64,000 bases of DNA from an uncultured bacterium (GTDB lineage Bacteria > Patescibacteriota > Saccharimonadia > Saccharimonadales > 2-12-FULL-41-12), in the NCBI GenBank assembly GCA_963834265.1, contig CAWIAU010000001.1, positions 391,572 through 455,571 of the forward strand. The letters are read 5' to 3'. Below, piece after piece: positions 6,925-45,223 of this stretch. Under the pieces are notes generated by a model, which saw only the letters and a program-made list of their open reading frames with translations, had not been told where the DNA came from and did no database searches. How positions within the stretch are numbered: position 1 is the first letter of the stretch; each line of letters begins with the position of its first letter. The translations under genes and the position numbers were made by a program.

Positions 6925-7024
6925 AAAAATATGCAAATTATTCAAATTAATTTGTGCAAAATGCTTTTGCTTGTATTATAAGTATAAAGTTAAGTGAGTT
7001 GTAAAGTAATAATGAAAGATAAAA

Positions 7025-8017: not shown

Positions 8018-8219
8018 CTCCTGGCTCCCGTTCAACCTTTCGTTATACAATGGTCTGACCTCATTCAGAACTCTTCTTTGAGCTAAAAATGCCCTTTTTG
8101 GTTGGAATCACCTAAAATTTTCTAACCATATCTCTGATATGCTGATAAAATTGTAAGGTGATTCTATCTCAAAAATCATCATTCCCATTATCAAAGCAGA
8201 TTTTTGAAAGAGGTCAGGT

Positions 8220-9515: not shown

Positions 9516-9517
9516 AT

Positions 9518-9877: not shown

Positions 9878-9895
9878 GGTTATTTATAAATTCGA

Positions 9896-10360: not shown

Positions 10361-10385
10361 ATTTTAACGTCTTATTCGTAATATT

Positions 10386-14957: not shown

Positions 14958-14964
14958 GAAAGTA

Positions 14965-16617: not shown

Positions 16618-16699
16618 AATATATCATTAAATCAGATTTTATAGTTTTATACAACCTTAAGCTTTTTGTGTAAAGCTATGCTCTATACTATCTAGAGTT

Positions 16700-17770
16700 A
16701 TGGATTTAAAGACACGAATACAGAATTTGGAACAAGAACTAAGGGATGCTCTAAGACGGATTGGTTTTGACGCACTCAAGACAGAACGAGAGAAGCTATT
16801 TGCTAAGAGCCAAGCGGCGGATTTTTGGCAGGATAATCTGAGTGCTCAGGGCGTTATGCAGCAGTTATCCAAGCTGGAAATACGGATAGAACCATGGCAG
16901 AAGCTCCAAAAAGAGCTGTATGAACTCAAAGAGATGTCAGAACTGGACGATAAAACTCTTCAGGATGATCTGGAAAAACAGCTGAAACAACTCGAAGCAG
17001 AATTAGAAAAACTGCGCACGGAGCTGGCTTACAGCGGACCGCATGATCAGGCAGATGCCCTGTTGAGTATTCATGCCGGTGCCGGAGGTACCGATGCACA
17101 GGATTGGGCACAGATGCTGCTTCGCATGTATATGCGATGGGCCGAACAAAGTAAATATAAAGTAACTACTATTGACGAATCAGCCGGAGACGAAGCGGGC
17201 ATCAAAAGCGTGACGATATCAATTAGCGGTCCACTGGCCTACGGCAAACTTAAGGGGGAGCATGGCGTACATCGCCTGGTCCGGCTCAGCCCGTTCAACG
17301 CCAATAACCTGCGCCAGACCAGCTTTGCCAAAGTAGAAATATTGCCCAGAACAGACCAGCCTGACGTTGTACCTCTCGATGAAAAAGAGCTCAAAATTGA
17401 CGTTTACAGGGCGGGTGGTCACGGTGGTCAGAGCGTTAATACTACTGATTCAGCCGTGCGGATAACACATTTGCCTACAGGGCTCACTGTCAGTATCCAG
17501 AACGAACGCAGCCAACTGCAAAATAAAGAAACAGCCCTGACTATTTTGCGGTCACGACTGGCACATCTGCAGTCAGAACAGCACGCAGAGAAATTATCCG
17601 AACTCAAAGGTCCCAATCAGTCTGCTGAATGGGGCAACCAGATTCGCAGCTATGTTCTTCATCCATACAAACAGGTCAAAGATTTACGCACTAATTACGA
17701 AAGCAAAGACCCGTCAGCTGTCCTTGATGGTGCGCTGGATCCATTTATTGAATCCTATAGCAAATCGTAA
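16700..17770 (+). CDS. prfB: peptide chain release factor 2 (single continuous frame)
   Basis: SPF tripeptide (VRLSPFNA) and GGQ (GGHGGQSVNTTDSAVRITHLPTG). The N-terminal domain is in the same frame. Confidence 0.9.
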   Translation: MDLKTRIQNLEQELRDALRRIGFDALKTEREKLFAKSQAADFWQDNLSAQGVMQQLSKLEIRIEPWQKLQKELYELKEMSELDDKTLQDDLEKQLKQLEAELEKLRTELAYSGPHDQADALLSIHAGAGGTDAQDWAQMLLRMYMRWAEQSKYKVTTIDESAGDEAGIKSVTISISGPLAYGKLKGEHGVHRLVRLSPFNANNLRQTSFAKVEILPRTDQPDVVPLDEKELKIDVYRAGGHGGQSVNTTDSAVRITHLPTGLTVSIQNERSQLQNKETALTILRSRLAHLQSEQHAEKLSELKGPNQSAEWGNQIRSYVLHPYKQVKDLRTNYESKDPSAVLDGALDPFIESYSKS

Positions 17771-17792
17771 AAGTCCTATATAATAACTGGTA

Positions 17793-18476
17793 ATGATTTT
17801 GCTGGACAGGGTAACTAAGACATATGGCAAAGGCAACGGATCGGCGCTGGATCGTATCAATCTGCATGTTGAACCCAAAGAATTTGTAATTGTAGTCGGA
17901 CAAAGCGGAGCGGGCAAATCCACATTACTGAAGTTGCTGACCCGCGAAGAACGGCCCACAAGTGGCAAGATTATTGTGGGTGGTATCGACTACGAACGTC
18001 TCAAAGACCGTAATATTCCAAGGCTGCGCCGTCGTATAGGCGTGGTATTCCAGGATTTCAAGTTATTACCCAATAAGACAGTTTTCGAGAATGTCGCTTT
18101 CGCGCTCGAAATTGTCGGTATGAGCAACCGTGAAATCAAACACACTGTTCCCAAAGTCCTGAATATCGTCGGTTTGAAAGGCAAGGAAAAGAGCTACCCC
18201 CGCGAGCTTTCCGGCGGAGAACGACAGCGTGTAGCAATTGCCCGGGCCGTAGTACGTCAGCCCAAGATACTAATCGCCGACGAACCAACAGGCAACCTTG
18301 ATCCTAAGCATGCATGGGACGTCATCAAAGTACTGGAAAAGATTAACAGATACGGAACCACTGTTCTGCTGACCACCCATAACCAGGATATTGTTAATCG
18401 TCTCAGGCGCCGCGTAGTGACAATTAAAGATGGCAGAGTCGTTAGTGACAAAGCCAATGCTCAGTACGAGCTGTAG
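17793..18476 (+). CDS. ftsE: cell division ATP-binding protein FtsE
   Basis: ABC ATPase motifs GQSGAGKST, LSGGERQRVAIARA and ILIADEPTGNLD. Immediately followed by ftsX. Confidence 0.9.
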   Translation: MILLDRVTKTYGKGNGSALDRINLHVEPKEFVIVVGQSGAGKSTLLKLLTREERPTSGKIIVGGIDYERLKDRNIPRLRRRIGVVFQDFKLLPNKTVFENVAFALEIVGMSNREIKHTVPKVLNIVGLKGKEKSYPRELSGGERQRVAIARAVVRQPKILIADEPTGNLDPKHAWDVIKVLEKINRYGTTVLLTTHNQDIVNRLRRRVVTIKDGRVVSDKANAQYEL

Positions 18477-18494
18477 CGGACCAGGTCATCATAT

Positions 18495-19472
18495 ATGAAA
18501 CATGATTTGATTACACTGGAGCGGATATTCAAAACCGGATTTATCAATTTCATCCGCAATGCCTCTTTATCAATCGCTGCTACAGCAGTAATGGTCGTTA
18601 CGCTCACTATAGTTTTGTTCTCGGTTATTGCCAACGCTACTTTTTCTCACACCGTGTCTGAAATTAATAAAACAATAGATATATCGGTTTATCTCAAAGA
18701 TTCAGTGACAGAAGATCAACGCAACAAGCTTATCAACGAACTGAAGGGTCTGCAGAATGTCCGGGCTGTAGAATATCTCAACAAAGAACAGGCACTCGAG
18801 AGTTACCGTGAGCAAAACAAAGATGACGTAGGCCTGTTACTGGCTATCTCCCAGGCTGATAATCCCTTGCCTGCAACAATTCGAATCAAACCAATAGATC
18901 CGGCCAGGAACGATGATATCAAAGCAGTCCTTGATAAGCCGGAGATAAGCGCTCTCCAGTCGGATGAAACATCCTATGCAGGTGAGCGCAAACAAAACAT
19001 TGATGAAATCACTAAATCCACATCATTTTTTCGCAAAGCGATTTTTGCCTCGGCTCTGGTCTTTGCTTTGATATCCATGATGATCATCTTCAATACAATT
19101 CAAATGGCCATTTTTAACCGCCGGGAAGAACTGACAATCATGAGATTACTCGGCGCGGGTACATGGTACATCCGCGGTCCCTTTATTGTCGAAACTATGC
19201 TCTATGGAGTTATCGCTGCGATCGTATCTATCAGCCTGTGTAATTTTCTGCTTATTGCGCAGGAGAGGGCTTTTGGTACCAGCAGTCTGAGCTTACTTGA
19301 TATCAATTATGCTACTGACTACTTTGCGAAGAATTTCTCAATATTTTTTGTTGCACTGCTGTTTGCCGGAATAATGATCGGCGCGTTATCATCCCTGATT
19401 GCCACCAAGCGCTACCTCAAATTCAACCAGAACTCTACCGTACGCCGCCGCATCCGCCGCAAAAAGAAATAG
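18495..19472 (+). CDS. ftsX: cell division permease-like protein FtsX
   Basis: N-terminal TM, periplasmic/extracellular loop domain, then three C-terminal TMs (FtsX layout). Adjacent to ftsE. Confidence 0.85.
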   Translation: MKHDLITLERIFKTGFINFIRNASLSIAATAVMVVTLTIVLFSVIANATFSHTVSEINKTIDISVYLKDSVTEDQRNKLINELKGLQNVRAVEYLNKEQALESYREQNKDDVGLLLAISQADNPLPATIRIKPIDPARNDDIKAVLDKPEISALQSDETSYAGERKQNIDEITKSTSFFRKAIFASALVFALISMMIIFNTIQMAIFNRREELTIMRLLGAGTWYIRGPFIVETMLYGVIAAIVSISLCNFLLIAQERAFGTSSLSLLDINYATDYFAKNFSIFFVALLFAGIMIGALSSLIATKRYLKFNQNSTVRRRIRRKKK

Positions 19473-19504
19473 CACTCTTTATTTAAAAAGACAAAAATTA
19501 TTAT

Positions 19505-19770
19505 GTAAAAATCAGTTTCAAGCCGGCCTGAAAGGCCGTCCCGACTTCCTTTTTGTGCCAACAAAAACGAAGCGAAAAAATGGCAGGCGATTACAGCTTC
19601 TTTATGATCTCATTGTCAAAAGACACAATGCTCGGCAAACTAGTCGTTTCATTATTAATTTCCATAGAATGAAACGCCGTCAAACACTGCCTCGACTCTA
19701 ATTGTGCTTTTGACACTCGCTCATCAGGAACCAGTAAAGCCTGGTTAAAATCCATGGACTAAAGTATTTA
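19505..19770 (-). repeat. structured intergenic element, copy 2 (minus orientation; unique 3' tail)
   Basis: The reverse complement reads TCCATGGATTTT...CCTGATGAGCGAGTGTCAAAAGCACAATTAGAGTCGAGG...hairpin CGTTTCATT/AATGAAACG...GAGCATTGTGTCTTTTGACAATGAGATCATAAAG, then two hairpins and TTGAAACTG. Confidence 0.8.
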
Positions 19771-19838
19771 TATATCCGACACTGAATACGAGTATAGAAA
19801 CTTTTAAGCAGTTGCTGTTATTTATTAAAGATCAAAAG

Positions 19839-19867
19839 TTGTTATATATGCGAACTTAGTATATTAT
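19839..19867 (+). promoter_or_regulatory. sigma70-like promoter TTGTTA-17-TATTAT for ORF 19894
   Basis: -35 box at 19839-19844, 17-nt spacer, -10 box at 19862-19867, 27 nt upstream of the ATG. Confidence 0.5.
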
Positions 19868-19893
19868 TATAAGTAATTAAGTGCGGGAATTAA

Positions 19894-20505
19894 ATGAGTG
19901 AAACTGATAGAAGTAGAGAATTAGAACCTGCGGCTTCAGATCAGGTTGCCGAGCTATACTGGCTGGTTCATACCGGATTAAGTTTAGTAAATCGTAATGA
20001 TACAGTTGGCGGGGATTTTAGTTATTTTACTGCTTCCAGAACCTATGCCGATGATACTTATGATGGATATATTCAAGGTGATCTCGTCAATCCTTTAGCA
20101 GAGTTCAATACAACTGGCTGCATTGCAATTATTGGAACCGGAGAGCTCGCTGAAAAAACAAGTATAACAACATTGGAGCAAACACGAGAATTACCGCATT
20201 TTATAACAGGATTTTATCTTTTCCATCAAGACACACGATTAGAAATTCGTAAGCATACTACTCTAGGGAAGCCAATTGATATAGATGTCAGAAAAGAAGC
20301 AGAGAAATTTGAGGACGGGAGCCTGGAAAATGATTTTGACTTAGGCACGGTAAGCCGACGAGAGATATCAGAGCTTATCAAGCAGGTAAAGCAAGCACTG
20401 GGTTTAGAAAAGACCGCAGAGCTTACGTTTAAAACTTTTGTTAAACAGCATGTTCTAGGATGGCTGGGAAAAGCTGGTATAGGTCATTTTAAGCGAGATA
20501 GGTAA
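19894..20505 (+). CDS. hypothetical protein (203 aa orphan) bracketed by inverted element copies 2 and 3
   Basis: ORF with its own promoter. No domain recognised. By eye more AT-rich than its neighbours (not computed). Confidence 0.55.
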   Translation: MSETDRSRELEPAASDQVAELYWLVHTGLSLVNRNDTVGGDFSYFTASRTYADDTYDGYIQGDLVNPLAEFNTTGCIAIIGTGELAEKTSITTLEQTRELPHFITGFYLFHQDTRLEIRKHTTLGKPIDIDVRKEAEKFEDGSLENDFDLGTVSRREISELIKQVKQALGLEKTAELTFKTFVKQHVLGWLGKAGIGHFKRDR

Positions 20506-20523
20506 AAGTTCTCAATTCCTGAT

Positions 20524-20757
20524 TCCGTTCAGGCCCGAAAAGCTCCTGATGAGCGAGTGTCAAAAGCACAATTAGAGCCGAGGGGTTGTTTGAGACCTGT
20601 CTATCTTAAGTAATAAAGACAGGTTGAGTTACCCGAGCATTGTGCTCTTTGACAATGAGATCCTCAAGAGCTTTTAGAGCCTGTTGCTTCTTTGCCTACT
20701 TTCTGGTCAACACAAGAAAGTAGGTTGAGGTGACGCAAAGCGTCAACTTGAAATGAA
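20524..20757 (+). repeat. structured intergenic element, copy 3 (head missing or divergent; 3' tail as in copy 6)
   Basis: TCAGG(20529-33)/CCTGA(20545-49); long stem 20560-20572 / 20639-20652; apical hairpin ACCTGTCT(20595-602)/AGACAGGT(20617-24); CCTACTTTCT(20695-704)/AGAAAGTAGG(20715-24); GACGC/GCGTC; TTGAAATG. Confidence 0.85.
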
Positions 20758-21007
20758 TTTCTTCAAATCTAACTTTTTTCTTCTCATAAGGGAATGAGCC
20801 TCAAGGCTCGTGTTATACTTTATATACAGATACATTCCAGCTGTAACAGTAGTATCTGCTTATTCGCAAAAAATAGAAGTATATGCAGGGCCAAAATAAT
20901 TAGAAATTAAATCTGTTGGAGTCAACAGATAAATTCTCCGTTTTCAGCGGGGAGAGGGGTTGATTATTTTGCTTATGCATGCTAGTATAGAAGCGTTACA
21001 TAAAAAA

Positions 21008-22144
21008 ATGAAAAACATCAAAAATAAAATGCTTTCAACACCTCTTCTGCGCGGCGCGGCAACACTGGGTATTACGGCGATATTTGGAGTCAGTGTTTTG
21101 GTGCACACCTTTGTTCAGGCTGACCAGTTTCAGGCACAGATTGATGCGATTAATCACGATAGCAGTCTCAAAAAAGACGCTCAGGGCCAGTTAGGTGCTC
21201 AGGCTGCAGGTTTATCAGACACAATTGCCAAGCTGCAGGGAGAAATTCAGGCGTTAGAGCGTCAGATTGTTGCGAACCAGCAAAAAGCTGATGATTTACG
21301 TGCTCAGATAGTGGCCGCGGAGGCCGAGCTGGCCAGGCAGAAGGCTATGCTGGGTGACATGATCAAAGCTATGTATCTGGAAGGCGATATTACTACTGTA
21401 GAAATGCTGGCTTCCAGCAAGGATCTTAGTGATTATTTTGACAAACAACAATATCAGGAAACTGTACGTAATAAAATCAAAGCTACTGTCGATAAAGTCA
21501 CACAGCTTAAACTCGACCTCAATACCCAGAAAGAAACACTGGAAAAGCTGATAGCTGATCAACAGCTTATAAGAGAACAGGTTAATGCCCAGCGCGCCGA
21601 ACAGGACCGTCTGCTTGCCCTAAATCAGAGCGAGCAAAGTGCTCTGGATCAGCAGATAAGAGCTAATAGCGGTAAGGTTGCCGAGCTGCGAGCCGCACAG
21701 GCTGCAGAGAACGCCAAGCGTTTCCGTGGTAGCGGTGTAAAGGTTGTGGCCGGCTCAAACGGCAACGATACGTATCCTGCAATATGGCGAAATTCACCTC
21801 AGGATAGCCTTGTAGACAGCTGGGGTATGTACAACCGCGAATGTGTTAGCTGGACTGCATGGAAAGTGCATTATAGTGGCCGGCACATGCCTTATTGGGG
21901 TGGAATCGGCAACGCCAACCAGTGGGATGATAATGCTCGTCGGGCTGGAATACCGGTAGATGGCAACCCGAGGGCTGGCGACATAGCTGTTGCGCACTGG
22001 GGCTACTACGGACATGTGATGTATGTCGAGTCAGTAAATCCCAACGGTACCATCAATATCAGTCAGTACAATTATGACTTCAACGGGACGTACTCTGAAG
22101 CTTATAACTTCCCGACAGCTGGTCTTGTATTCATCCACTTCTAA
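21008..22144 (+). CDS. coiled-coil + CHAP-domain peptidoglycan hydrolase (PcsB-like)
   Basis: Signal/anchor segment, then ~230 aa of heptad-like Q/A/L-rich sequence, then a C-terminal CHAP domain (NRECVSWTAW...GHVMYVESV). The ORF track starts at TTG 20960; ATG 21008 is preferred. Confidence 0.75.
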   Translation: MKNIKNKMLSTPLLRGAATLGITAIFGVSVLVHTFVQADQFQAQIDAINHDSSLKKDAQGQLGAQAAGLSDTIAKLQGEIQALERQIVANQQKADDLRAQIVAAEAELARQKAMLGDMIKAMYLEGDITTVEMLASSKDLSDYFDKQQYQETVRNKIKATVDKVTQLKLDLNTQKETLEKLIADQQLIREQVNAQRAEQDRLLALNQSEQSALDQQIRANSGKVAELRAAQAAENAKRFRGSGVKVVAGSNGNDTYPAIWRNSPQDSLVDSWGMYNRECVSWTAWKVHYSGRHMPYWGGIGNANQWDDNARRAGIPVDGNPRAGDIAVAHWGYYGHVMYVESVNPNGTINISQYNYDFNGTYSEAYNFPTAGLVFIHF

Positions 22145-22273
22145 CAAATAACCTTTGTCAGGTGATCGCACAAATCAAAGAAGTTTAAAATATTGCTTTT
22201 GGTTAGCGTTTATAACTGTTTTTACGGTAGAATATAGAATATATAGAAAATTAACAGAGAGGGGTGGCAACAC

Positions 22274-23512
22274 TTGAATTACATGGCAAATTATCCGGCT
22301 CCCACGGAGCCGGCACCGAAGCGGGGTATCCCGGGGGCTTTAAAGTTAGCAGCAGTCGGGGCAGTATCAATAGTTATGTTCGGCATAGGCGTTCTGACAG
22401 GGCAGGGCAGGATCAGCTTTAGCTCTGACAAACCCGCTAACCAATCAGTACAGAAACAACCGGCCGGCAAATTTGATTACTCGTCTATTGAGGGATTATC
22501 AGCTCAGCTACGCCAGAATTTTGACGGCGAACTGGATAATGCCAAACTGGAAGAGGGACTAAAAGAGGGACTGGTCAAAGCCGCCGGTGACCCATACACC
22601 GAGTACTTCAATGCCGAGGGGAGTAAAGAGCTTCAGGAGCAGTTAAGCGGCTCGTTCGAAGGGATAGGCGCTGAACTTGGTAAACAGGAAGATGCAATTG
22701 TGATCATTTCGCCGATTGCAGGCTTCCCCGCAGAGAAAGCCGGGATGAAACCGCGTGATATTATCTACGAAATAAACGGCAAGACAGCGGCTGACATATC
22801 AATCAGTGAGGCGGTCAAACAGATCCGCGGGCCCAAAGGCACCAAAGTTAAACTGACAGTTATACGTGATGGTCAGAAGCTGGACTTCGAAATCACCCGT
22901 GAACAGATCAGCATCCCGAGTGTTACTAGTGAGATTGTAACCGGGAACATCGGTATTATCAAAATCTCACGTTTCGGTGAAGATACGGTGGACTTAGCCT
23001 CCAAAGCCGCTACTGATTTCAAAGCAAAAGGTGTAACCGGCGTCATATTGGATCTTCGCGGGAACCCCGGTGGTTATCTGGAAGGATCGGTCAAAATCAG
23101 CAGCCTGTGGCTGGACAAAGGCAAACTGGTCGTTGAAGAAAAACGTGGCGACAAGGTAATAAAAGACCACAAAGCTACCGGTAATTCGATATTATTCGGT
23201 ATACCGACAGTAGTGTTAATCGACGAGGGTAGCGCCAGTGCCAGCGAAATCGTAGCCGGTGCACTCAAGGATCACAAAGCCGCGACAATCATGGGAACCA
23301 AAAGTTATGGCAAGGGCAGTGTTCAGCAGGTCCTGCCGCTGAATGACGGAGGTACGCTTAAGGTCACAGTAGCCCGCTGGTTCACGCCGGCCGGCCGTAA
23401 CATCGATAAAGAGGGTATAGAACCTGATCAGAAAACTGATCGGAGTACAGAAGACATCAAGGCCAACAAAGATCCACAGAAAGATGCGGCACTTTCCAAG
23501 CTCAAGAAGTAA
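22274..23512 (+). CDS. S41 carboxyl-terminal processing protease with PDZ domain
   Basis: GIGAELG...PIAGFPAEKAGMKPRDIIYEINGK (PDZ); DLRGNPGGYL and GSASASEIVAGALKD (S41 Ser/Lys region). Confidence 0.85.
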   Translation: MNYMANYPAPTEPAPKRGIPGALKLAAVGAVSIVMFGIGVLTGQGRISFSSDKPANQSVQKQPAGKFDYSSIEGLSAQLRQNFDGELDNAKLEEGLKEGLVKAAGDPYTEYFNAEGSKELQEQLSGSFEGIGAELGKQEDAIVIISPIAGFPAEKAGMKPRDIIYEINGKTAADISISEAVKQIRGPKGTKVKLTVIRDGQKLDFEITREQISIPSVTSEIVTGNIGIIKISRFGEDTVDLASKAATDFKAKGVTGVILDLRGNPGGYLEGSVKISSLWLDKGKLVVEEKRGDKVIKDHKATGNSILFGIPTVVLIDEGSASASEIVAGALKDHKAATIMGTKSYGKGSVQQVLPLNDGGTLKVTVARWFTPAGRNIDKEGIEPDQKTDRSTEDIKANKDPQKDAALSKLKK

Positions 23513-30447: not shown

Positions 30448-32184
30448 ATGACATCTCCCGAACAACCAATGTTAACTAATGATCAGCTGGGCAATCTGGC
30501 AATCCGAACGGTTCATGATGCCGAATTAATCCAGGGAGGTGCTGCATATCAGCATCATGGCACTCCGCTACCAGAGAACTTAACAGGGGATGTGATAATT
30601 CGGCCAGTAGGCTTAGATGTGCCTGAGTCGCAACAAGACGCGCTTTACGAAAAGAATGTCATAGAGCCTCAGGTAAAAGCATTTCTCGAAGAAACTCCTG
30701 AAGGTCAGGAAATTACCAGTCATAAAGAAACACTTTTGAGTATAAAAAATATTGTTGGCGGGAGAATCGGCGATGTTATACACTATGATACTAAAAGTAG
30801 GAAAGAAGCACAGAACCTCCCGGGTTTCGAATCCTTTCTACATACAAACGGTATAGATATCGATTTCGACAGGCTAAGTCGCCGATCCGAATCATCAGAG
30901 TATGGAAGTGACATTTCAAAGATGTTAAGCAGCTTTCAAGGCAATTTAGATACTCTGGCCCGTACCCTGGCATTGAGTCCTGATCTTCGTCTTAATAAAA
31001 AAGTAAATATCCGTCGCCCTGAAGATGGATCATCCTTGGAAGAGCCGGAATGGGTTATCGAGGGCTTCACCGCAAAAGGTCGTGTAAGAGTTGGGCAGGA
31101 TGGTTCTGACTCCTATAGTATGCGTGAAGTATCAGCAGATGCTTTAAGCCCGGCAGTAAGCAGTGAACAGACTGAAGTTATTTCTGCACATGACGACCAG
31201 TATCTAATAGCGTCAAGAGAAGCCGGTGGGATTGTAATAAAACTAGCCGGTGAAAAGGCTGTGAACACACCGCCAGACGAAATCGCTGCAGATAGCAAAG
31301 CTCCGGTAAATGAATTCAAAAGACCTGAACTTAATAGTGTTTTCAGTGATGGACGTAGTCTCGAACGAACATTAAGAGATCCGGACGTTGATCCGGATAT
31401 CAAAAGCCAGCTTCGTGCAGTAACCGGTGCGTGGCAGGAAGTACAAACAGCTCTTGTTGTCGATAAAGCCTGGAATGAAGTTATCTCTCCTGCACTTAGC
31501 CGGCTGGATGAAGCTTTACCGAACCTCAAAGGCATGGTTGATAACCTGAATCAGGTAACAGAACAAATGTCCGGCGGCCTCAGAATACTGGCTGAGGCAA
31601 TTGAGAGCAGAGATATAATGGCTATTGAAGATGGGGCACGGCGTGTAGGATTAGAATCGCTGATTGATCAGTTTGGCCAGAATTCGCAGAGACTTGTAAA
31701 TAATAACGGATTAGCTCAGGCCGCGTATCAATTAGGTGGTGATAACGAAGAAAGTGCTGATCTGGTCAGACGCAGTTTGATTCGCGAATTTGATAATGAG
31801 ATGGACGAAGCCTCATACGATAAACTAGCCGGACAGGTCGGTCCGTTGATAGATCAAGGCCTGGATCTGCCACAGGTAATTGCCAGAATCAGGCAGGATG
31901 TGCCGGAAGAGACTACCGCTAGTTGGCTACGACATCAAGAAGATATCGCCACAGTAGTAACCTTCGCCCGATTGGCAGGTTCAAATGAAGAGCTGGGCAC
32001 ACCTTTTACACAACTGAATAATGAGCTTGGTGCTTTTAGGGAAGCAATGATTAGAGGAAGCTATGATGCTGCCCAGGCTATGTATATAAGAAATAGTTTA
32101 CTAGCTGGTATTCAAAGGAAGCTCGAAGATCTTACAATGATGACCCGATTGATTGATTCGTACCGCAGAGACAGCCAAAAATAA
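30448..32184 (+). CDS. hypothetical protein (578 aa orphan, soluble, helical C-terminal half)
   Basis: Long ORF behind a consensus promoter. No TM, signal peptide or catalytic motif recognised. Confidence 0.55.
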   Translation: MTSPEQPMLTNDQLGNLAIRTVHDAELIQGGAAYQHHGTPLPENLTGDVIIRPVGLDVPESQQDALYEKNVIEPQVKAFLEETPEGQEITSHKETLLSIKNIVGGRIGDVIHYDTKSRKEAQNLPGFESFLHTNGIDIDFDRLSRRSESSEYGSDISKMLSSFQGNLDTLARTLALSPDLRLNKKVNIRRPEDGSSLEEPEWVIEGFTAKGRVRVGQDGSDSYSMREVSADALSPAVSSEQTEVISAHDDQYLIASREAGGIVIKLAGEKAVNTPPDEIAADSKAPVNEFKRPELNSVFSDGRSLERTLRDPDVDPDIKSQLRAVTGAWQEVQTALVVDKAWNEVISPALSRLDEALPNLKGMVDNLNQVTEQMSGGLRILAEAIESRDIMAIEDGARRVGLESLIDQFGQNSQRLVNNNGLAQAAYQLGGDNEESADLVRRSLIREFDNEMDEASYDKLAGQVGPLIDQGLDLPQVIARIRQDVPEETTASWLRHQEDIATVVTFARLAGSNEELGTPFTQLNNELGAFREAMIRGSYDAAQAMYIRNSLLAGIQRKLEDLTMMTRLIDSYRRDSQK

Positions 32185-32307: not shown

Positions 32308-33441
32308 ATGAACTTTAACGAACAACCAACTGCAGCATTGTCACAGCCAATTGAAACAGGAGATCCATCCGGATTACGAGCCAATCAAGGCACAGCTGTG
32401 GTAGCTGCTGTACTGGCGCTGGGAGGAGCGGTCAATCAGGCAGGCAATTTCGATACTTCACACCCGGTTACTCAGGGTAGTAATCCTTCCAATATTCAGG
32501 TAGTGCCTATGGATGCACAGGCGGGCACAGTGGGAACGAAGCAGGCAGCCGAATCAATGATAGCAAAAATGCGTGGTCTATCAGCGATGACAGGAGAGTT
32601 ACCTGCAGAAAAAAAGGCTTTGAACACTCAGGATGAATTAAAAGCAAATGGTGGCTCAGGCTCGGCCTATATAGAAAGCAGTAATAACTCCGTAACAGAT
32701 GATATTGGTTGCGAGCCCGAACCAACAGATACAACTGATTATGACAATACTGACGATCAGTACCAGTCTCTTAATGACAGTACTGATTCCGGTCTGGATT
32801 CAACCGGCGCAGATACTGATTCCGGCCTCACAGTTACAGCAGACACGGCTGCCATTCAATCCGGTAGCAGTACTATAGAGACTCCAGCCGTCAGATCACA
32901 GATAATTGATGCAGGCGGAGAAGAACCGGAAGCTACCCCGACAACAGACGGCAACGAGGATGAGAATACTGGCGACACAGACACAGACACAGACACAGAC
33001 GGCGAAAATAACGCTGGCAATTCGGATAATAATAATTTGGACGCAGACACTGGCAACTGGGGTGAAGGTGATTCTGCTGGAAACGATAATTACACAGATA
33101 GTGGCAACGTAAGTGATTATGGTGCTGATACGGCAACAGACGATACGGGGAGTGCTAATGCCCCTGATATAGACGATAGTTCTTCAGATGGTAACGGCTA
33201 TCCGGGCCAGGGGATCGATAACGGAGAAGAATCACCAGAATCTGCAGAAAACTGCGACAACCCTATATCCGATGATGAAAGCGGGGGAGACGATGATTCC
33301 GTTACTCAATCAGATGATGATATGGCAGACGACCCAACCACCACCGGACCTGTGTCCGAAGCAGCGGAGGGCGAAGGAGAAGATCCTTATGGTCTCCTGG
33401 ATGATCCAAACACACAGAACACCGGTGAATCAACACCATAA
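32308..33441 (+). CDS. hypothetical, extremely acidic D/T/N/G/S-rich protein with one hydrophobic segment
   Basis: 377 aa. Hydrophobic segment AVVAAVLALGGAV, followed by ~250 aa of low-complexity acidic sequence that includes a DTDTDTDTD run. Confidence 0.5.
   Translation: MNFNEQPTAALSQPIETGDPSGLRANQGTAVVAAVLALGGAVNQAGNFDTSHPVTQGSNPSNIQVVPMDAQAGTVGTKQAAESMIAKMRGLSAMTGELPAEKKALNTQDELKANGGSGSAYIESSNNSVTDDIGCEPEPTDTTDYDNTDDQYQSLNDSTDSGLDSTGADTDSGLTVTADTAAIQSGSSTIETPAVRSQIIDAGGEEPEATPTTDGNEDENTGDTDTDTDTDGENNAGNSDNNNLDADTGNWGEGDSAGNDNYTDSGNVSDYGADTATDDTGSANAPDIDDSSSDGNGYPGQGIDNGEESPESAENCDNPISDDESGGDDDSVTQSDDDMADDPTTTGPVSEAAEGEGEDPYGLLDDPNTQNTGESTP
32974..33000 (+). repeat. hexanucleotide microsatellite (GACACA) x4.5 inside ORF 32308
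   Basis: GACACAGACACAGACACAGACACAGAC, in frame, encoding DTDTDTDTD. Confidence 0.9.
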
Positions 33442-35191: not shown

Positions 35192-37405
35192 ATGGCAGGC
35201 ACACCAGAAATAACAGAACCTGTTAGGGTTGATCAGGAAAGCCTGACTCATAATGTCTATCCCGGACCAAGTGGTGCCGCAGACAATGACTCTCAAAAGG
35301 AATTTTCACAATATGTTGTTGACAGAATGTATGGCGCAGATGATAAGGTTGCGCAAGATTATCGACCAGGCGCTGAAGTGCCAGGTCAAACCCACTGGAG
35401 GCGCGAAGGATGGGTACTGGGTGTGACCCCGGGAAAAGCTCTTATAGCAACTGCGGTCGGACTGGTCGTACTAAATGTTGCGGTGAACGCTGGTAGTATG
35501 GCCGGAAAAATAAAGGAAATGTTTGGTGATCTTAAGCATCAGATAAGTCCTGAGAAGCGAACAGTATTAGGGGAAATGACTGTAACCCAGTCGCGCACCC
35601 ATACGTTGCGCTATCCACTTGATTTGACAGGTAGGGAACATCGCAGCGGAACGGCACAAGAGGATAGATTATCTGCAAGAAAATTAGTCCTGTCACTGAA
35701 AGCTCTCAAATCAGGAAGCAAGGTTGAAGAAATAACAATCGTAGGTAACACTTCTGATGAATGGGCAGCAAATGGTCCTAAATCTGTCGGTAGAAATGAT
35801 ACCGAAAATAACACCTTGGGACTAAGAAGAGCTGTTATATTCGGCAAAAGCGTAGATAGAGAATCACAAAAGCTAAAAGTCAGTTTACCTGATGCAAGAA
35901 CCAGTTCTGAGGAGCATATTCTGGACAATTCAGAGCTTTCCGAGGTGCTTTTATCAGTGCAGAAAAGTAAGTACGGAAGCGTACTGGAAGCTATATCTGC
36001 CTACAATGCCGGGGATAAAAGTATGTCACCGACACTAGCAACTATTATTAAAGAAACTATTGCTCAGAATCGGGTCAGTACGGCAATTGTTAAAGTGCGC
36101 GAGAACTCTATAGTTCCTGCAAAAGTTATCGTTGAGTCTCCGCATGAGGAATCTGTTGATCGTCCTGATGATAAACATCCCATCAAGAAGATACCATTTC
36201 TCATTCCTTTCTTCCCTAGGATGCGACGCGAACATAAGGATCCGTTCCGCAAACCGCCAATAATTCGCGATGAACCAATCGATAAAGTCTGGGTTGAGCT
36301 GTACGAAGAGGCGCTCAAGACGGGCGGTAAGCTTGTAGATGATGCGTGGTCGCTAAGTAGAAAGTATCAATATTTATACCGCGAAAACCGAATTACTCAG
36401 GTACTCCAATTCGATTATGTTGACGACAGCGGCAAAAAACAGAAAACGAATGTTCTTTTTACTGACCGGGATGAACTGGGAGAAGATGTGATTGATGCGA
36501 TTTCCGGACTGTTGCTCGACATAAGCATGATGCAAAATGGAAAGGTTGCAGAAAAACTCGATACCATCGTGGTTGTGCCGACCGAACAGACAGGGCCGCA
36601 GCGGCCGGATAAAATTGGCTTGGGTATCGACGATCAGATGCATCAAAACGTCTTGGGAGTTGCAATACCTGTCTTGGGATTGGTAGAGCTCCATATGCCA
36701 GATACGCCAACTAAAGGTGATATAGAACGATTTAACGGAACGCGCTGGGTTATTGCACATGAAGTTGGGGGGCACTTTACTGACGTAAATAAGCAGAGTC
36801 GGATCATCGATAAAACAAAAAGCAACCGTCCCGGACGCATCTTCACGGCTCGCAATCCATGGGTTAATGTCGGTGCGGACAGCTATAACTCAACTTCAAG
36901 GCGGGGAGTTGTTAAGATTCAACAATTTACTATTCCGAACCCTGATGGTTCGACAACTGAATTTATTGTGAATGCTGGCGACCAGGAGTTGGTTGATGCA
37001 CCAAAAGCCCGGTTGCGCGGTGAAGCACCAACAAATTATGGTGACACCTCAGCGGCAGAGATTCATGCGGAAACGGCAGCTGGTGTAATTACCGGTATAC
37101 CAATCCCTGCTTCAGAATCCGGAAATGTTCCTGAGATACTGGGCGATAAAGCCGGCTATAAGGTTGATGCTGGTTTGCAGCATCGTTTTATAAGCCGGAT
37201 CGGTGCATTAAGAGGTAAAGAAGACCTTGAATGGGATCCAAATCGTTTTGAAAAGAGACAAAAAACTGTAAAAGTTTCCGTTCTGCGCGGAGCAGTTGAA
37301 TTAAACGACGATAAGGATCAGAATAGAATTAGCGAAAATGCGAAGAATAGTCCCTATCAAGATGATGAAAAACGTCTCAAAATTCTAGCCCGGGTTCGAA
37401 GATAA
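35192..37405 (+). CDS. membrane-anchored protein with an OmpA-C-like segment and a HExxH metalloprotease-like motif
   Basis: TM ALIATAVGLVVLNVAVNAG; ITIVGNTSDEW...NNTLGLRRAVIFG resembles the OmpA/MotB peptidoglycan-binding pattern; WVIAHEVGGHFTD is a HExxH motif. Confidence 0.5.
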   Translation: MAGTPEITEPVRVDQESLTHNVYPGPSGAADNDSQKEFSQYVVDRMYGADDKVAQDYRPGAEVPGQTHWRREGWVLGVTPGKALIATAVGLVVLNVAVNAGSMAGKIKEMFGDLKHQISPEKRTVLGEMTVTQSRTHTLRYPLDLTGREHRSGTAQEDRLSARKLVLSLKALKSGSKVEEITIVGNTSDEWAANGPKSVGRNDTENNTLGLRRAVIFGKSVDRESQKLKVSLPDARTSSEEHILDNSELSEVLLSVQKSKYGSVLEAISAYNAGDKSMSPTLATIIKETIAQNRVSTAIVKVRENSIVPAKVIVESPHEESVDRPDDKHPIKKIPFLIPFFPRMRREHKDPFRKPPIIRDEPIDKVWVELYEEALKTGGKLVDDAWSLSRKYQYLYRENRITQVLQFDYVDDSGKKQKTNVLFTDRDELGEDVIDAISGLLLDISMMQNGKVAEKLDTIVVVPTEQTGPQRPDKIGLGIDDQMHQNVLGVAIPVLGLVELHMPDTPTKGDIERFNGTRWVIAHEVGGHFTDVNKQSRIIDKTKSNRPGRIFTARNPWVNVGADSYNSTSRRGVVKIQQFTIPNPDGSTTEFIVNAGDQELVDAPKARLRGEAPTNYGDTSAAEIHAETAAGVITGIPIPASESGNVPEILGDKAGYKVDAGLQHRFISRIGALRGKEDLEWDPNRFEKRQKTVKVSVLRGAVELNDDKDQNRISENAKNSPYQDDEKRLKILARVRR

Positions 37406-40619: not shown

Positions 40620-42716
40620 ATGGCAAATGGCGAAGTTATCGGGGATATTAATCCCAGGGAAGTAATACAGGAAGACCCCAGGGCATGCTTAAGTGCTTGT
40701 CTGCTTTCACAGGTTGATTCAGCTGTTGGTCTCTCCGAAGGAGAAGTGAGCCAGATACTTATCGCTGACGGTTTGTATGAACCAGGAGTCGGCACCAGGC
40801 TTTATCCTGCCTGTGAACTTGACGCTACTTTGTTTAAACTTGGACTGCATGCCAGTCCGGTCTATGATGCCCGCGGGCTGAGTGAGGATGAAGAGCCAAA
40901 AGTACTTGAACGCCTGGACAAAGTTGACAGGACGCTGCGTCAAGGTAAAAGCGTGCTTTTGGCCTTTCCAAAAAGACGCGAAAACCAAACACCATTCCTG
41001 CACTACGCGGTCGTGAGTGGTTTTATTGACGATAAAGATGGTAATGGGGTGGTGGTTATGGATCCAAGCGGGATAGACGGCGGAGTCAAACATCCCACGT
41101 GGCAGGAACTTATGGAATACGCTACTCCTAGCGAAGGGGTACCGGTCATGGCATGGGGAATCAACAATGCCCGGGAAAAACAGTTTGAGTTCGATAGGCA
41201 GGAAACAGATCCCCCCATTCTGTCAGGCTGGAACCTGCTTACCAATCCACTACATGATGAAAAAGATACCGGCAAACCCATTCCGTCCGGAAGACACTCT
41301 ACCTCGGTAGTCATACCGACTACCAATATAACCAGACAGTTCGCGGCTTATGGCGATATCGTACTATCGCGCGATGGGAATTATCCGGCCGGCTATCCGC
41401 GGTTCGTCGTTCCGCCTGCCGTCACAAAACTATCCCTTCAGGTACGTGGCCGGCCGGATAGTCTGCCATTTCCATCTCAGAAAGCTGCCTATGCGGCCGG
41501 TCGTATGGAAAGAACCTATGGAGAGCATGCGGTAATTAGCGAGGAAAACGGATTATTCTGGCTTTCGGGAACAAACTTTAACGTCAAAGCCTGGCAGCAT
41601 ACGGGACTTGGCATATCCTCTCGTCAGGCGCAGGCTACACTCGAGGGACGGCCTGCAAACGATGAGCTACGCAGAGAAGTAGCCGAGGCAAGGATAAAAA
41701 AAGTGATTGAAGCTCACACGAGGACTCATCCTGAAGATATATATCTGTTTCCTACCGGCATGGCGGCTATACACTGCATAAACCAGGCACTGATTAGAAT
41801 GTCAGGCGGCGAAAGCGGGGTGCAGTTTGGTTTTCCATACACCGATAGCTATGATCAGCGCTATTTGGGGCCCAAAAGAGATGTTCGTACTAATATATTA
41901 GATTTCAGAGACGGAGATTATCAGCGCTTGCGTCGCCATATTAACAGCGGACAACCTATACGAGGCCTGATGAGTGAGTATCCTTCAAATCCTTTGCTCC
42001 GGACAACTGATTTTGAGCAACTGGACGATATTATGGGACACGCCGGACCGATAATTATAGATGATACGGTAGGCACTATGTACAATCTGGATGACACCAA
42101 ACTGCCCGATAGTGTAGTGGCGCGGGTTACAAGTCTGACTAAGTATTTCTCGAGTGTTGGTGATGTCATGGGCGGTTCTATCGTCTTACGCCCAAAAAGC
42201 CCGTATTATGAACATCTCAAAAAAACTCTCACTGAACTGTATGAGGATACGCTATGGTATGAAGATGCCGAAAAACTAGCTGATAACAGCAGTTTATTTT
42301 CAGCAATAATGCGAGTAATTAACCTAAACTCAGAGCAGTTGGCAGTAAATCTACACGAAGAATTTACAGGTCCGGATAAGCCGTTGCGCGCTGTGTATCA
42401 CCCAAGTCTGAGTGGCAAATCTACTTATGACAAAGTAAAAAAAGACTACGGGGGATACGGCGGACTTATGAGTCTGCGGTTCAATAAGCCGGAGCGGGCA
42501 TATCCGTTCTTTGATGCTTTGAAAGTTACTAAAGGTCCGAGTTTTGGCACTTTCTATATGTTGGGATGCCTGTATACACGGCTGGCACACAAACCGGTTG
42601 ATTCGGTACGGCAGTTCGGTGTAGTGCCTGATCTGGTCAGATTATCTGTTGGAATTGAAGATGGAGAAGATCTGCGGGGTAGGATAGAAGAAGCTATGAT
42701 TGCAAGCGCACGGTAG
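40620..42716 (+). CDS. fusion protein: N-terminal papain-like (C39/BtrH-like) domain + Cys/Met-metabolism PLP enzyme (cystathionine gamma-synthase-like)
   Basis: C-terminal ~380 aa: YLFPTGMAAIHCINQAL, IIDDTVGT, and SLTKYFSSVGDVMGGSIV (PLP-binding Lys). N-terminal ~190 aa: candidate Cys (DPRACLSACL), His (FLHYAVVSGF) and Asp (VVVMDPSG). Confidence 0.65.
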   Translation: MANGEVIGDINPREVIQEDPRACLSACLLSQVDSAVGLSEGEVSQILIADGLYEPGVGTRLYPACELDATLFKLGLHASPVYDARGLSEDEEPKVLERLDKVDRTLRQGKSVLLAFPKRRENQTPFLHYAVVSGFIDDKDGNGVVVMDPSGIDGGVKHPTWQELMEYATPSEGVPVMAWGINNAREKQFEFDRQETDPPILSGWNLLTNPLHDEKDTGKPIPSGRHSTSVVIPTTNITRQFAAYGDIVLSRDGNYPAGYPRFVVPPAVTKLSLQVRGRPDSLPFPSQKAAYAAGRMERTYGEHAVISEENGLFWLSGTNFNVKAWQHTGLGISSRQAQATLEGRPANDELRREVAEARIKKVIEAHTRTHPEDIYLFPTGMAAIHCINQALIRMSGGESGVQFGFPYTDSYDQRYLGPKRDVRTNILDFRDGDYQRLRRHINSGQPIRGLMSEYPSNPLLRTTDFEQLDDIMGHAGPIIIDDTVGTMYNLDDTKLPDSVVARVTSLTKYFSSVGDVMGGSIVLRPKSPYYEHLKKTLTELYEDTLWYEDAEKLADNSSLFSAIMRVINLNSEQLAVNLHEEFTGPDKPLRAVYHPSLSGKSTYDKVKKDYGGYGGLMSLRFNKPERAYPFFDALKVTKGPSFGTFYMLGCLYTRLAHKPVDSVRQFGVVPDLVRLSVGIEDGEDLRGRIEEAMIASAR

Positions 42717-43700
42717 TCAGGCTGCCCCGGATGAATATCCGCGATAAACTATTCCTATCCAGTTGGCATGGATTACAGAATTATCAGAAGCCCATGTGAG
42801 TCGGGCATTAGCCTCATCCGCTACATCGTCTTTATAGTAGCCTACAGGTAATGGCATCTCTAATTCTGCGCTTTCGGGGCGATCGTATTCGCGGTGGAGA
42901 GCTCGCCTGCCGTACTCGGGATGTCCTTGTGTCAGAACATCGCTACCGCCACTATTATTGGGAGCCTCAGCGTACAACCAGCCAATTTTTTCATTGGCTG
43001 ATACCAGACGGAGTGCTGTTACTCCAACTACTTTTTCTGTTGGGATATTTCCCCAGCGTGAGTGTGGCGCACGAATCCGGTCATTCACGCCGCGCACAAG
43101 CGGATTATCGGGATCAAGGACGTCGTGGTCGTACACGCCAAAGATTTTTTTCATTCCAACTTCTCTCTGAAGCCCATAGCGATGGTGTAGCAAAAGCTGG
43201 CCGGCCAGACAGGAATACCAGCTGGAATGTACTTCGTCATCTGCCCAGTCCATGACTTCTTGCAGCTGTTTGTAATATCTGATTTCGTCGGGTGGTAATA
43301 CCTCAAAATCCCGGTCAGTATAACTGGAAAAACCGGTATGTCTGCGAATCTCCAGATTATCGCCGGTAACTATAAGTCCGTCCAGACCTGCCGGAGCAAT
43401 CTCAGAAAAAGGTTTGTAACGTTTGAGTATCTCGGCTCTGCCGGAACCCGGATCTTCGCGCCGGTCATCGTCAAACTTTATGAGTACAGGATCTATTTGT
43501 AAGAGTGCCTGGTTGCCGATACAGCGTAGCCACTGGATTTCGGTACGCTCCATTGCTTCGGCGGGCATCAAATTCAGCAGGCCAATTCGGGCAGGTCGGA
43601 TTTCCTGAGCAGCGGCGGTCGCTTCGTCCATAACGTCAATGCCGGCAGATTCCAGTCTCGCGCGCAGGCAGGGATCATGTTCGGGGGCAACAATAGGCAT
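42717..43700 (-). CDS. metA: homoserine O-acyltransferase, MetA family
   Basis: QEIRPARIGLLNLMPAEAMERTEIQW...IVTGDNLE...SCLAGQ... is collinear with MetA (QEIRPLKVLILNLMP in E. coli). Confidence 0.8.
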   Translation of the reverse strand: MPIVAPEHDPCLRARLESAGIDVMDEATAAAQEIRPARIGLLNLMPAEAMERTEIQWLRCIGNQALLQIDPVLIKFDDDRREDPGSGRAEILKRYKPFSEIAPAGLDGLIVTGDNLEIRRHTGFSSYTDRDFEVLPPDEIRYYKQLQEVMDWADDEVHSSWYSCLAGQLLLHHRYGLQREVGMKKIFGVYDHDVLDPDNPLVRGVNDRIRAPHSRWGNIPTEKVVGVTALRLVSANEKIGWLYAEAPNNSGGSDVLTQGHPEYGRRALHREYDRPESAELEMPLPVGYYKDDVADEANARLTWASDNSVIHANWIGIVYRGYSSGAA

Positions 43701-43762
43701 AGAATAACGATTATAACATAAAGTTTGCTATTTATTACAATAAGTGCTAACATTTGCTAATT

Positions 43763-45223
43763 ATGTCCGAGTTAGTAAGTACAAGGGATCTTTTGGCACA
43801 AAGACACTCTTATAGTGACGGCCTGATGCAGGGTTTAGCCGGTGATGGCGGGTTATTTATGGTGCCGGACGGGATGTATCCGCAGCCTGGTCTTAATAAG
43901 CTTTCTTATTACGACTACCCGGAGCTGGCAGCAGAAATCGTTGGGTGTTATGCCAGGAATTCTATCCCGGACGCAACCCTCCGGGGATTCAGCGCTGCAG
44001 CATACGCAGAAAATAATTTCCAATCAGATATGGGGGAACTGCCGCCAGTAATCGAAATTCTGCCTGATATATATATTGCAGATCTTTCTACAGGACCGAC
44101 CGAAGCCTTTAAGGACTATCCATTGCAACTCGTAGGACGCCAGATGGACTATATTCTGAGCCTGGAGGGCGGGGCAGACTTTTTAATGGCAATTGGCGCA
44201 ACAACGGGAGATACTGGTCCTTCCGCCGAAGCTGCGCTTTCTGGCCTCTCGCGGTTAGGCTTGGTTATGCTCAGTCCGGATGAAGGGATGGCACCTTATC
44301 AAAAAGGCCAGATGGGGATGCTGTCAGAAACGGATGAAAACAGAAACAACATTACCAATGTCACCGTGCGAGGCAGCTTTGACGACTGTCAAAAATTAGT
44401 CAAGCAAATAATGGGCGAAGAAGAATTCGAAGATTTAGGCGCGGTGAATTCTATTAATTGGGGCCGTATTGTAGCTCAGGTTCCTTATTACTTCTCTGCA
44501 TATTTTCAAGCGGTAGGCGAAAATATTGGCGAACCGGTAGATTTTGTCGTTCCGTCGGGCAATTTCGGCAACATGATGGCTGGACATATCGCCCGCAAGA
44601 TGGGCCTGCCTATCCGTAATTTAGTCGCTGCCACTAATGAAAATGATACTTTGGATAATTTCATCCAAAGGGGCGAGTATTTTTATAGAGACAGGCAGAT
44701 TACTTCCAGTCCGTCTATGGATATAACAGCACCTTCTAATATAGAAAGGCTGGTATATGAGCTGCTAGGCTGCGATCCAGCAAAAACAACAGTGTATGCC
44801 AAAAGATTTAAGGATGGCCACGTAGACCTGAAGGCGTTTGGTTTATCCCGTCAGATTTTCCGGCGTGCTGGTATAGACAGCGGCGTATCAACGAATAAAG
44901 ATCGCATCCACACGATACAGGATGTTTATGTGGCTTCAGGCATTATTATCGATCCTCACACTGCCGATGCCGTAACTGTAGCCCGAAGGAAAAATGACCC
45001 ACGCGAGAACATAAAGACAATCTGCCTGGCCACTGCGTCACCGGTTAAATTTGAAGATACCATTCGAAAAGCCCTGGGTTCGTGCCATTTGCCGGAGAGG
45101 AAGTCAGGGCGAGAAAATATTGAAGAATACGCTGATACCGGGTTTACTGCCATAGAGCCTGACATTGCGGCTTTGCGCGGGATTGTAAGGTATGCAAGAA
45201 GTCGGCTGATCGCCCGCCTATAA
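43763..45223 (+). CDS. thrC: threonine synthase (long form)
   Basis: STGPTEAFKDYPLQLVG (PLP Lys in FKD), ATTGDTG and VPSGNFGNMMAG. ATG 43763 is preferred over the TTG 43754 used in the track. Confidence 0.8.
   Translation: MSELVSTRDLLAQRHSYSDGLMQGLAGDGGLFMVPDGMYPQPGLNKLSYYDYPELAAEIVGCYARNSIPDATLRGFSAAAYAENNFQSDMGELPPVIEILPDIYIADLSTGPTEAFKDYPLQLVGRQMDYILSLEGGADFLMAIGATTGDTGPSAEAALSGLSRLGLVMLSPDEGMAPYQKGQMGMLSETDENRNNITNVTVRGSFDDCQKLVKQIMGEEEFEDLGAVNSINWGRIVAQVPYYFSAYFQAVGENIGEPVDFVVPSGNFGNMMAGHIARKMGLPIRNLVAATNENDTLDNFIQRGEYFYRDRQITSSPSMDITAPSNIERLVYELLGCDPAKTTVYAKRFKDGHVDLKAFGLSRQIFRRAGIDSGVSTNKDRIHTIQDVYVASGIIIDPHTADAVTVARRKNDPRENIKTICLATASPVKFEDTIRKALGSCHLPERKSGRENIEEYADTGFTAIEPDIAALRGIVRYARSRLIARL

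Follow-up and report, generated by a model that had tools for sequence, protein, structure and literature searches.

Organization of the fusion gene

The DNA analysed here, called the window below, is a stretch of 64,000 nucleotides from an uncultured Saccharimonadales bacterium (assembly GCA_963834265.1, contig CAWIAU010000001.1, positions 391,572 to 455,571 of the forward strand). It carries a gene in which a papain-like domain (hereafter the N-domain) is joined to a module of the pyridoxal phosphate (PLP)-dependent enzymes of Cys/Met metabolism. The gene is a single open reading frame (ORF) that starts with ATG and has no internal stop (Table 1). Four motifs singled out in a preliminary description made from the sequence alone, DPRACLSAC, LHYAVVSG, VVMDPSG and SLTKY, are all present in this ORF of 698 amino acids (aa).

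The two halves of the gene are similar in composition, with G+C and third-position G+C contents of 0.50 and 0.45 in the N-terminal part, versus 0.48 and 0.44 in the remainder. The region around the gene is an ordinary housekeeping stretch of 43–50% G+C, along which the cumulative GC skew climbs steadily. At the protein level, the linker (residues 186–198) varies in length and sequence in an alignment of 24 fusions, and the conserved start of the PLP module follows directly after it. The AlphaFold2 model of the full-length fusion has a predicted local distance difference test score (pLDDT) of 91.4 and a predicted template modelling score (pTM) of 0.89. Since this pTM is high for two domains joined by a flexible linker of about 13 residues, and only the linker appears disordered, the model hints that the two domains are packed in a defined arrangement.

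Table 1. Coordinates of the fusion gene, its predicted domains and residues, and the two genes downstream.
Feature	Position in window	Strand	Basis
Entire fusion gene, 698 aa plus stop	40620..42716	+	ORF list; same protein (P0001) in public assemblies
N-terminal papain-like cysteine hydrolase domain (predicted), residues 1–185	40620..41174	+	AlphaFold2 model, Foldseek, weak Pfam Peptidase_C39_2
Gln17 codon, predicted oxyanion-hole residue (Q-x5-C)	40668..40670	+	Invariant, 33/33
Cys23 codon (DPRACLSAC), predicted nucleophile, N-terminus of helix 23–29	40686..40688	+	Invariant, 33/33
His128 codon (LHYAVVSG), predicted general base, strand 126–137	41001..41003	+	Invariant, 33/33
Asp148 codon (VVMDPSG), predicted third triad member, end of strand 144–148	41061..41063	+	32/33; the exception is a truncated sequence
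Interdomain linker, disordered, residues 186–198	41175..41213	+	Sole segment with pLDDT <50 in the full-length model
Extended Cys/Met-metabolism PLP module of BesB/CndF/fungal cystathionine gamma-synthase type, residues 199–698	41214..42713	+	Pfam PF01053, NCBIfam BesB, PDB CndF/BesB, Foldseek
Lys508 codon (SLTKY), Schiff-base Lys	42141..42143	+	Family alignment
metA-type homoserine O-acyltransferase	42717..43700	-	Pfam HTS, 223.5 bits; convergent, no gap to fusion gene
Threonine synthase, long form	43754..45223	+	TIGR00260 thrC, 213.9 bits versus cut-off 167

The fusion in other genomes

A search with the full protein returned, besides the identical P0001 (NCBI, ENA and Logan), which lies on a 720-kb contig, 25 proteins of 694–725 aa with 98–100% coverage and 43–63% identity. 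These homologous fusions come from NCBI, JGI, ENA and Logan assemblies, and the alignment is continuous across the domain junction. Further, more distant fusions are P0121, P0122, P0126 and P0132. Altogether, at least 28 distinct full-length fusions, with about 30–63% identity, were found in independent assemblies, and nearly all those with a taxonomic label are assigned by it to the Saccharimonadales/Saccharibacteria. The gene of the window was also found, with the same neighbours, in an independent 6.8-kb Logan contig (run ERR12037361).

It had been pointed out at the outset that the fusion might be an assembly join of two genes and that it should be searched for in other genomes. An artefact of this kind, be it an assembly join, a missed stop or a frameshift between two genes, finds one point in its favour, in locus L089. 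There, a fusion homologue (positions 311..2476) contains one in-frame TAA, located exactly where the PLP module begins (…NSTIG*TGLPIPP…), and is called as two products of 236 and 482 aa. The locus is otherwise collinear, broken by one codon, and does not look like an ancestral two-gene state; the stop may be a nonsense mutation or a sequencing or contig error, or the gene may be a genuinely split version. Against an artefact stand the 28 or more uninterrupted fusions, obtained by independent projects and assemblers, and the identical gene in a second, independent assembly. The join is almost certainly real.

The distribution of the fusion was scanned by a pattern-based search covering one genome for each of 185,579 GTDB species. 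Among the best 80 loci, those with the fusion come from only four species. Three of them are labelled Saccharimonadales/Saccharibacteria (L008, L009, and L010 with L012) and the fourth is L011 (CAZGZD010000007.1). This last fusion is the most divergent (39% identity), and the metagenome-assembled genome that carries it is labelled ‘uncultured Gammaproteobacteria’. The contig is probably misbinned, because its neighbouring genes look like those of the candidate phyla radiation (CPR): comEA, comEC, nusG with an N-terminal extension, a Mur ligase and many ORFs without a Pfam match.

No protein of this architecture was found in the PDB, nor in the literature searched on the fusion or on methionine genes of Saccharibacteria, in agreement with the initial remark that no characterised enzyme combines these two domains. 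Existing annotations are ‘PLP-dependent transferase’ for HEX5456174.1 and ‘cystathionine gamma-synthase’ for the JGI copies.

Predicted fold and catalytic residues of the N-domain

The N-domain (residues 1–185) was modelled with AlphaFold2 from a 24-sequence alignment, and the pLDDT and DSSP assignments given here are outputs of this model. Mean pLDDT was 91.7 and pTM 0.87. Nearly all of the top 50 Foldseek matches in the PDB were papain-type (clan CA) cysteine peptidases, so that the papain-like fold proposed in the preliminary description is borne out. The leading matches were structures of Alr0975, the phytochelatin-synthase-like glutathione hydrolase of Nostoc, including its glutathione acyl-enzyme (2bu3, 6th5 and 6tho, E 7e-5 to 1e-3, TM-score 0.5–0.6). 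They were followed by staphopains A and C, and then by cathepsins, interpain, Josephin-2 (rank 15) and others. Foldseek probability was 1.0 for both Alr0975 and staphopain.

In the clan CA fold, the catalytic Cys is placed at the start of a helix, and the His and Asp/Asn on a beta-sheet. In the N-domain model, Cys23 opens a helix, His128 lies within a strand and Asp148 ends the next strand (Table 1). This predicted placement of Cys, His and Asp is the canonical papain arrangement.

Conservation was inspected in three alignments: the 24 closer fusions, a diverse set of 18 sequences, and a set of 33 sequences that includes standalone proteins. Gln17, Cys23, His128 and Asp148 are unchanged in all 24 closer fusions, and they are the sole invariant columns of the diverse set, in which mean column identity is 34%. 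The same holds for the set of 33, except that Asp148 is lacking in one truncated sequence. The Cys-His-Asp order read initially from the sequence is therefore conserved, together with a Gln that completes the clan CA order Gln - Cys - His - Asp/Asn, standalone homologues included. In papain, the oxyanion-hole Gln likewise lies six residues ahead of the Cys, a spacing also present in Alr0975 (NsPCS). While these four positions remained fixed, the remainder of the domain drifted to 25–56% identity. As far as sequences can tell, such an invariant tetrad marks an active site preserved by clear purifying selection on its catalytic residues, and the N-domain is apparently a divergent papain-like cysteine hydrolase or transferase, predicted to be catalytically intact.

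The N-domain as a separate small family

In the 24 members scanned, no Pfam family matched the N-domain at threshold. The only one to match it repeatedly is that of the Peptidase_C39_2/C39 bacteriocin-processing peptidases. For the window protein, the match to Peptidase_C39_2 (PF13529) scored 18.5 bits, below the gathering score of 24 (E 0.0031). Sub-threshold matches to this family were seen in 14/24 members (best E 8e-4) and cover the His/Asp half of the domain; precomputed annotation of P0024 also holds a PF13529 match. Peptidase_C39 itself matched 2/24 N-domains. C39 systems differ from the fusion, which has no ABC transporter or leader-peptide context, and the top 50 Foldseek matches contained no ABC-transporter C39 structure. 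At E ≤ 1, the 24 N-domains matched eight Pfam families, and BtrH_N was not one of them. The label ‘C39/BtrH-like’ initially given to this region fits only loosely: Peptidase_C39_2 gives sub-threshold matches, BtrH_N gives none, and the nearest folds are phytochelatin-synthase-like enzymes and staphopain, not the C39 domain of ABC transporters.

When PDB sequences were searched with a profile of the N-domain, only noise was returned (calmodulin, a carboxypeptidase; E > 0.2). HMMER, run exhaustively over 1.84 billion cluster representatives, detected just 19 proteins at E ≤ 1e-3. Since the fold and residues of clan CA are present, whereas matches to Peptidase_C39_2, Peptidase_C39, Phytochelatin and BtrH_N fall short of their thresholds, the N-domain is best described as a new, small and highly diverged family within the papain clan CA.

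Standalone copies of the N-domain also occur, namely P0127 (197 aa) and P0130 (189 aa). Because both keep the tetrad and have no PLP enzyme as neighbour, the domain is predicted to have an activity of its own, which the fusion recruited. P0130 is placed after a class-I aminoacyl-tRNA synthetase gene. P0127 is in locus L001, flanked by a release-factor gene on one side and by ftsE/ftsX/CHAP on the other; the region is syntenic with 13.7–23.5 kb of the window. The order M16 peptidase / release factor / ftsE / ftsX / CHAP / S41 peptidase is common to window positions 13674..23512 and L001 positions 2249..10505, and at the point where L001 has P0127, after the release factor and before ftsE, the window has only 22 bp.

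An extended PLP module

The C-terminal part had been assigned to the Cys/Met-metabolism PLP family, including the Lys of SLTKY, and this assignment was confirmed by a Pfam match to Cys_Met_Meta_PP (PF01053) over residues 372–693, with 81.4 bits versus a cut-off of 27. Roles of individual residues were assigned by alignment to PF01053. Lys508 (the Schiff-base Lys), Asp481 (the Asp facing PLP-N1), Arg674 (the Arg binding the alpha-carboxylate) and Gly380-Met381 are invariant in the 24 fusions, and for this reason the module looks catalytically competent.

The nearest solved structures by sequence were CndF (8zif, E 2e-39) and BesB (9aua, residues 217–690). By Foldseek, the full-length model superposed on BesB with a target-normalised TM-score of 0.83, and on CndF with 0.75–0.78. 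The top NCBIfam model was BesB (NF042918), aligned from residues 220–693 to model positions 2–488 of 491. Because the alignments to BesB and CndF and the model superposition span residues ~217–693, the PLP module is ~480–500 residues long and belongs to the extended BesB/CndF/fungal cystathionine gamma-synthase (CGS) branch, of which the N-terminal extension is typical. The preliminary description, which gave ~190 aa for the N-terminal domain and ~380 aa for the C-terminal one, was close for the former (~185 aa) but too short for the latter.

BesB of Streptomyces, CndF and fungal CGS (Str2/MetG-like, for example P0113) share with the fusion the same extended PLP fold, with its extra N-terminal segment of ~150 aa, and all keep the Schiff-base Lys, the PLP-binding Asp and the carboxylate-binding Arg. 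They differ from it by their low identity (~25%), and none of them carries a papain-like domain. Matches to fungal-type CGS such as P0113 extend over 54–57% of the fusion query. Closer in sequence are standalone homologues of ~490–500 aa from Planctomycetota, Verrucomicrobiota, Lentisphaeria, Kiritimatiellia and others, 32–39% identical over fusion residues ~205–698. They begin where the fusion linker ends, without an N-domain; the gene contexts of two of them (P0043 and P0046) were uninformative.

Scores against function-specific models were low throughout. BesB reached 118.2 bits versus an equivalog cut-off of 800, and among the CGS, gamma-lyase and sulfhydrylase equivalogs (TIGR02080, TIGR01325, PRK) the best CGS-type scores were 58–70 bits versus 477–690. 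As every equivalog threshold was missed, the module should not be named CGS, sulfhydrylase, lyase or BesB.

Genes around the fusion

Downstream of the fusion gene lie a metA-type homoserine O-acyltransferase gene and a threonine synthase gene (Table 1). The trio fusion / metA / thrC was also found in L004 (with fusion P0012), L008 (P0007) and L010/L012, which makes four lineages with the window, and in L005 (P0025) metA is one gene away from the fusion. In some loci, neighbouring genes were identified through precomputed annotations. By comparison, a MetA homologue was absent within 8 kb in all ~76 loci of the standalone PLP homologue. The acyl type of the window MetA was not settled by its scores, 207 bits for the acetyl model versus 197 bits for the succinyl model, both far below cut-offs.

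Other genes of the window are housekeeping genes, among them xseAB, a small methyltransferase, an LPG-synthase-like membrane protein, recO, a class-II tRNA synthetase, CTP synthase and secA. No genes for a non-ribosomal peptide synthetase (NRPS), an acyl carrier protein (ACP), a halogenase or other tailoring enzymes were found near the fusion gene. No Rfam family reached its gathering score in the 64-kb window, and there was no S-adenosylmethionine riboswitch or T-box ahead of the met and thr genes; promoter and terminator scans gave background levels.

The threonine synthases of these clusters (window 43754..45223, L004 11360..12700, L012 2245..3225) are only 28–40% identical to one another, and so are more divergent than the neighbouring fusion proteins (~55–57%) or MetA (46–57%); all those tested pass the thrC cut-off. 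Two genes adjoining fusions elsewhere were considered and set aside. The aminotransferase of L009, a candidate MalY/PatB-type beta-lyase, is AspC/TyrB-like, and the Fe-S protein of L005 is QueG and unrelated.

Proposed function and alternative explanations

Taken together, the data make it likely that the protein truly has two active sites and works in homoserine/sulfur amino-acid metabolism. The best overall explanation, a bifunctional enzyme combining a gamma-synthase with a thiol-peptide-processing hydrolase, falls a little short of being probable as a whole. Its weaker part is the role of the N-domain: that this domain processes thiol peptides, specifically, is an assignment drawn by analogy and doubtful. 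The analysis shows the join, the two folds, the conserved catalytic residues and the linkage to metA and thrC. What the enzyme acts on, which way the reaction runs and whether the two active sites are coupled, as the preliminary description had suggested for thiol or peptide processing and gamma-replacement, we infer from the relatives and gene context described above.

On this explanation, the adjacent MetA would supply O-succinyl- or O-acetylhomoserine to the PLP module, which would eliminate the acyl group to give a PLP-bound vinylglycine ketimine. A sulfur nucleophile would then be added at C-gamma, yielding cystathionine, homocysteine or a related thioether. Elimination of the acyl group followed by addition of a nucleophile at C-gamma is common to CGS, O-acylhomoserine sulfhydrylases, CndF and Fub7. 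For a gene that lies beside metA and thrC in a reduced genome, a sulfur nucleophile with a cystathionine- or homocysteine-type product is the most economical assumption. The N-domain would act on an amide or ester, by hydrolysis or transfer, through a thioester acyl-enzyme at Cys23. It could thereby make or unmask the thiol co-substrate from a scavenged Cys-containing peptide (glutathione, gamma-Glu-Cys or Cys-X) or, alternatively, trim the peptide part of an S-(3-amino-3-carboxypropyl)-Cys-peptide product. Such a thiol-liberating or thioether-trimming role is favoured because a gamma-synthase needs a thiol, and because the nearest structural relative of the N-domain cleaves glutathione and its S-conjugates at the Cys-Gly bond. 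Trimming of glutathione S-conjugates is carried out by phytochelatin-synthase-like enzymes. Alr0975, the best structural match, has a papain-type Cys-His-Asp triad and acts on a small Cys-containing peptide; unlike the window protein, it carries no PLP enzyme fusion.

Several observations weigh against a sulfur-handling, thiol-peptide enzyme of this kind. The scores of the PLP module for CGS, sulfhydrylase and BesB are all far below cut-offs, and the closest characterised relatives, BesB and CndF, act in secondary metabolism without a thiol nucleophile. No metA was found within the stretch examined at the fusion loci L006, L009 and L011. As for the N-domain, the likeness to Alr0975 is modest (TM-score 0.5–0.6, 11–13% identity), hardly above the likeness to staphopain, and the Pfam family Phytochelatin (PF05023) matched, below its threshold, just 2/24 members, with a best E of 0.021. 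Its substrate is one that we infer only, by analogy with these relatives.

The first two of these observations, BesB and CndF being nearest by both sequence and fold, would suit a BesB/CndF/LolC-like enzyme that makes a non-proteinogenic amino acid from O-acylhomoserine through a C-N or C-C bond, outside the methionine pathway. The papain-like domain would then be an acyl- or aminoacyl-transferase or an amidase (BtrH-, NAT- or transglutaminase-like) acting on the product, and papain-fold acyltransferases do exist. This is unlikely in view of the housekeeping neighbourhood with metA and thrC, where the NRPS, ACP, halogenase and tailoring genes are missing, of the lack of BtrH_N matches, and of the fungal-type CGS within the same extended branch. 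A different task for the N-domain is suggested by systems in which a peptidase is functionally tied to a Cys or homocysteine sulfhydrylase, HcyD/HcyS/MetY and Mec+/CysO/CysM. Protein-thiocarboxylate homocysteine synthesis with a dedicated protease operates in Wolinella succinogenes, and the mycobacterial CysO system is comparable. The N-domain could be the cysteine-protease analogue of the JAMM enzymes HcyD and Mec+, that is, a Gly-Gly-specific peptidase serving a ubiquitin-like sulfur-carrier protein, which would expose the C-terminal Gly-Gly of the carrier or free homocysteine from a carrier adduct made by the PLP domain. The best Pfam signal of the domain is indeed C39-like (14/24 members), C39 peptidases cut after Gly-Gly, and the deubiquitinase Josephin-2 is at rank 15 of the fold matches. 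HcyD and Mec+, however, are metalloproteases on separate polypeptides, and neither a carrier nor an E1-like gene was found in the 64-kb window and the related loci scanned. The window and seven related fusion loci were scanned for ORFs of 50–130 aa ending in Gly-Gly, and the only one present, in L012, looks spurious; among the ~67 window ORFs scanned, none had a ThiF/MoeB-like (E1-like) or ThiS/MoaD Pfam match. Together with the missing ABC-transporter C39 structures, this leaves the carrier-protein role quite improbable.

The N-domain may also be no catalyst in the pathway at all, and serve instead for scaffolding, oligomerisation or regulation, or for sensing, with Cys23 signalling the redox or thiol state to the PLP domain. 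Plant CGS has N-terminal regulatory extensions, and the full-length pTM of 0.89 suggests packing on the PLP module. We nevertheless consider such a role quite improbable, for the four catalytic positions are invariant in a domain otherwise at 25–56% identity, the standalone copies hold the same tetrad, and a scaffold has no need of the Gln, His and Asp. Finally, bleomycin hydrolase, which has the papain fold, hydrolyses homocysteine thiolactone, and the N-domain, whose fusion partner should produce homocysteine or cystathionine, might be a protective hydrolase for a reactive by-product of this sort. No specific likeness to the C1B bleomycin hydrolases was seen in the top 50 fold matches and the gene context lends no support, which makes this reading highly improbable.

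Possible significance

For most of their amino acids, Saccharibacteria and other CPR bacteria are believed to rely on their hosts; the conserved metA / gamma-synthase / thrC module would therefore be one of the few amino-acid pathways kept by a subset of Saccharibacteria. The presence of a cysteine-hydrolase domain points to a sulfur donor, or a product, other than that of the textbook pathway. A hitherto undescribed, Saccharibacteria-specific sulfur route to homocysteine or methionine, in which N-domain and gamma-synthase together channel the sulfur of host-derived thiol peptides onto O-acylhomoserine, has a low probability in our judgement; if it were true, the need for free cysteine or sulfide would be bypassed in an episymbiont with minimal biosynthesis. 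If the bifunctional reading is right, this would be the first case of a BesB/CndF/Str2-branch enzyme to which a second active site is tethered. Nothing yet sets its chemistry apart from known gamma-replacement plus cysteine-hydrolase reactions. Once the substrate of the N-domain is defined, a new peptidase family would have its function, and the way in which episymbionts acquire sulfur amino acids could become clear.

Other features of the window

Four large ORFs of the window had no Pfam match: 35192..37405 (737 aa), 30448..32184 (578 aa) and 32308..33441 (377 aa) at E ≤ 0.01, and 14965..16617 on the minus strand (550 aa) at E ≤ 0.001.

A class-I lysyl-tRNA synthetase (positions 1091..2618, plus strand) is encoded by two overlapping ORFs in different frames. 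The first (1091..1471) corresponds to positions 2–123 of Pfam tRNA-synt_1f, and the second (1443..2618) to positions 125–340 plus the anticodon-binding domain. A frameshift, a fault in the assembly or decay to a pseudogene could explain the split of this essential gene.

Further on, a heliorhodopsin gene (3338..4234, plus strand; PF18761, E 3.5e-31) adjoins a gene for a membrane protein of the TauE/SafE-type sulfite exporter family (4223..4966, minus strand).

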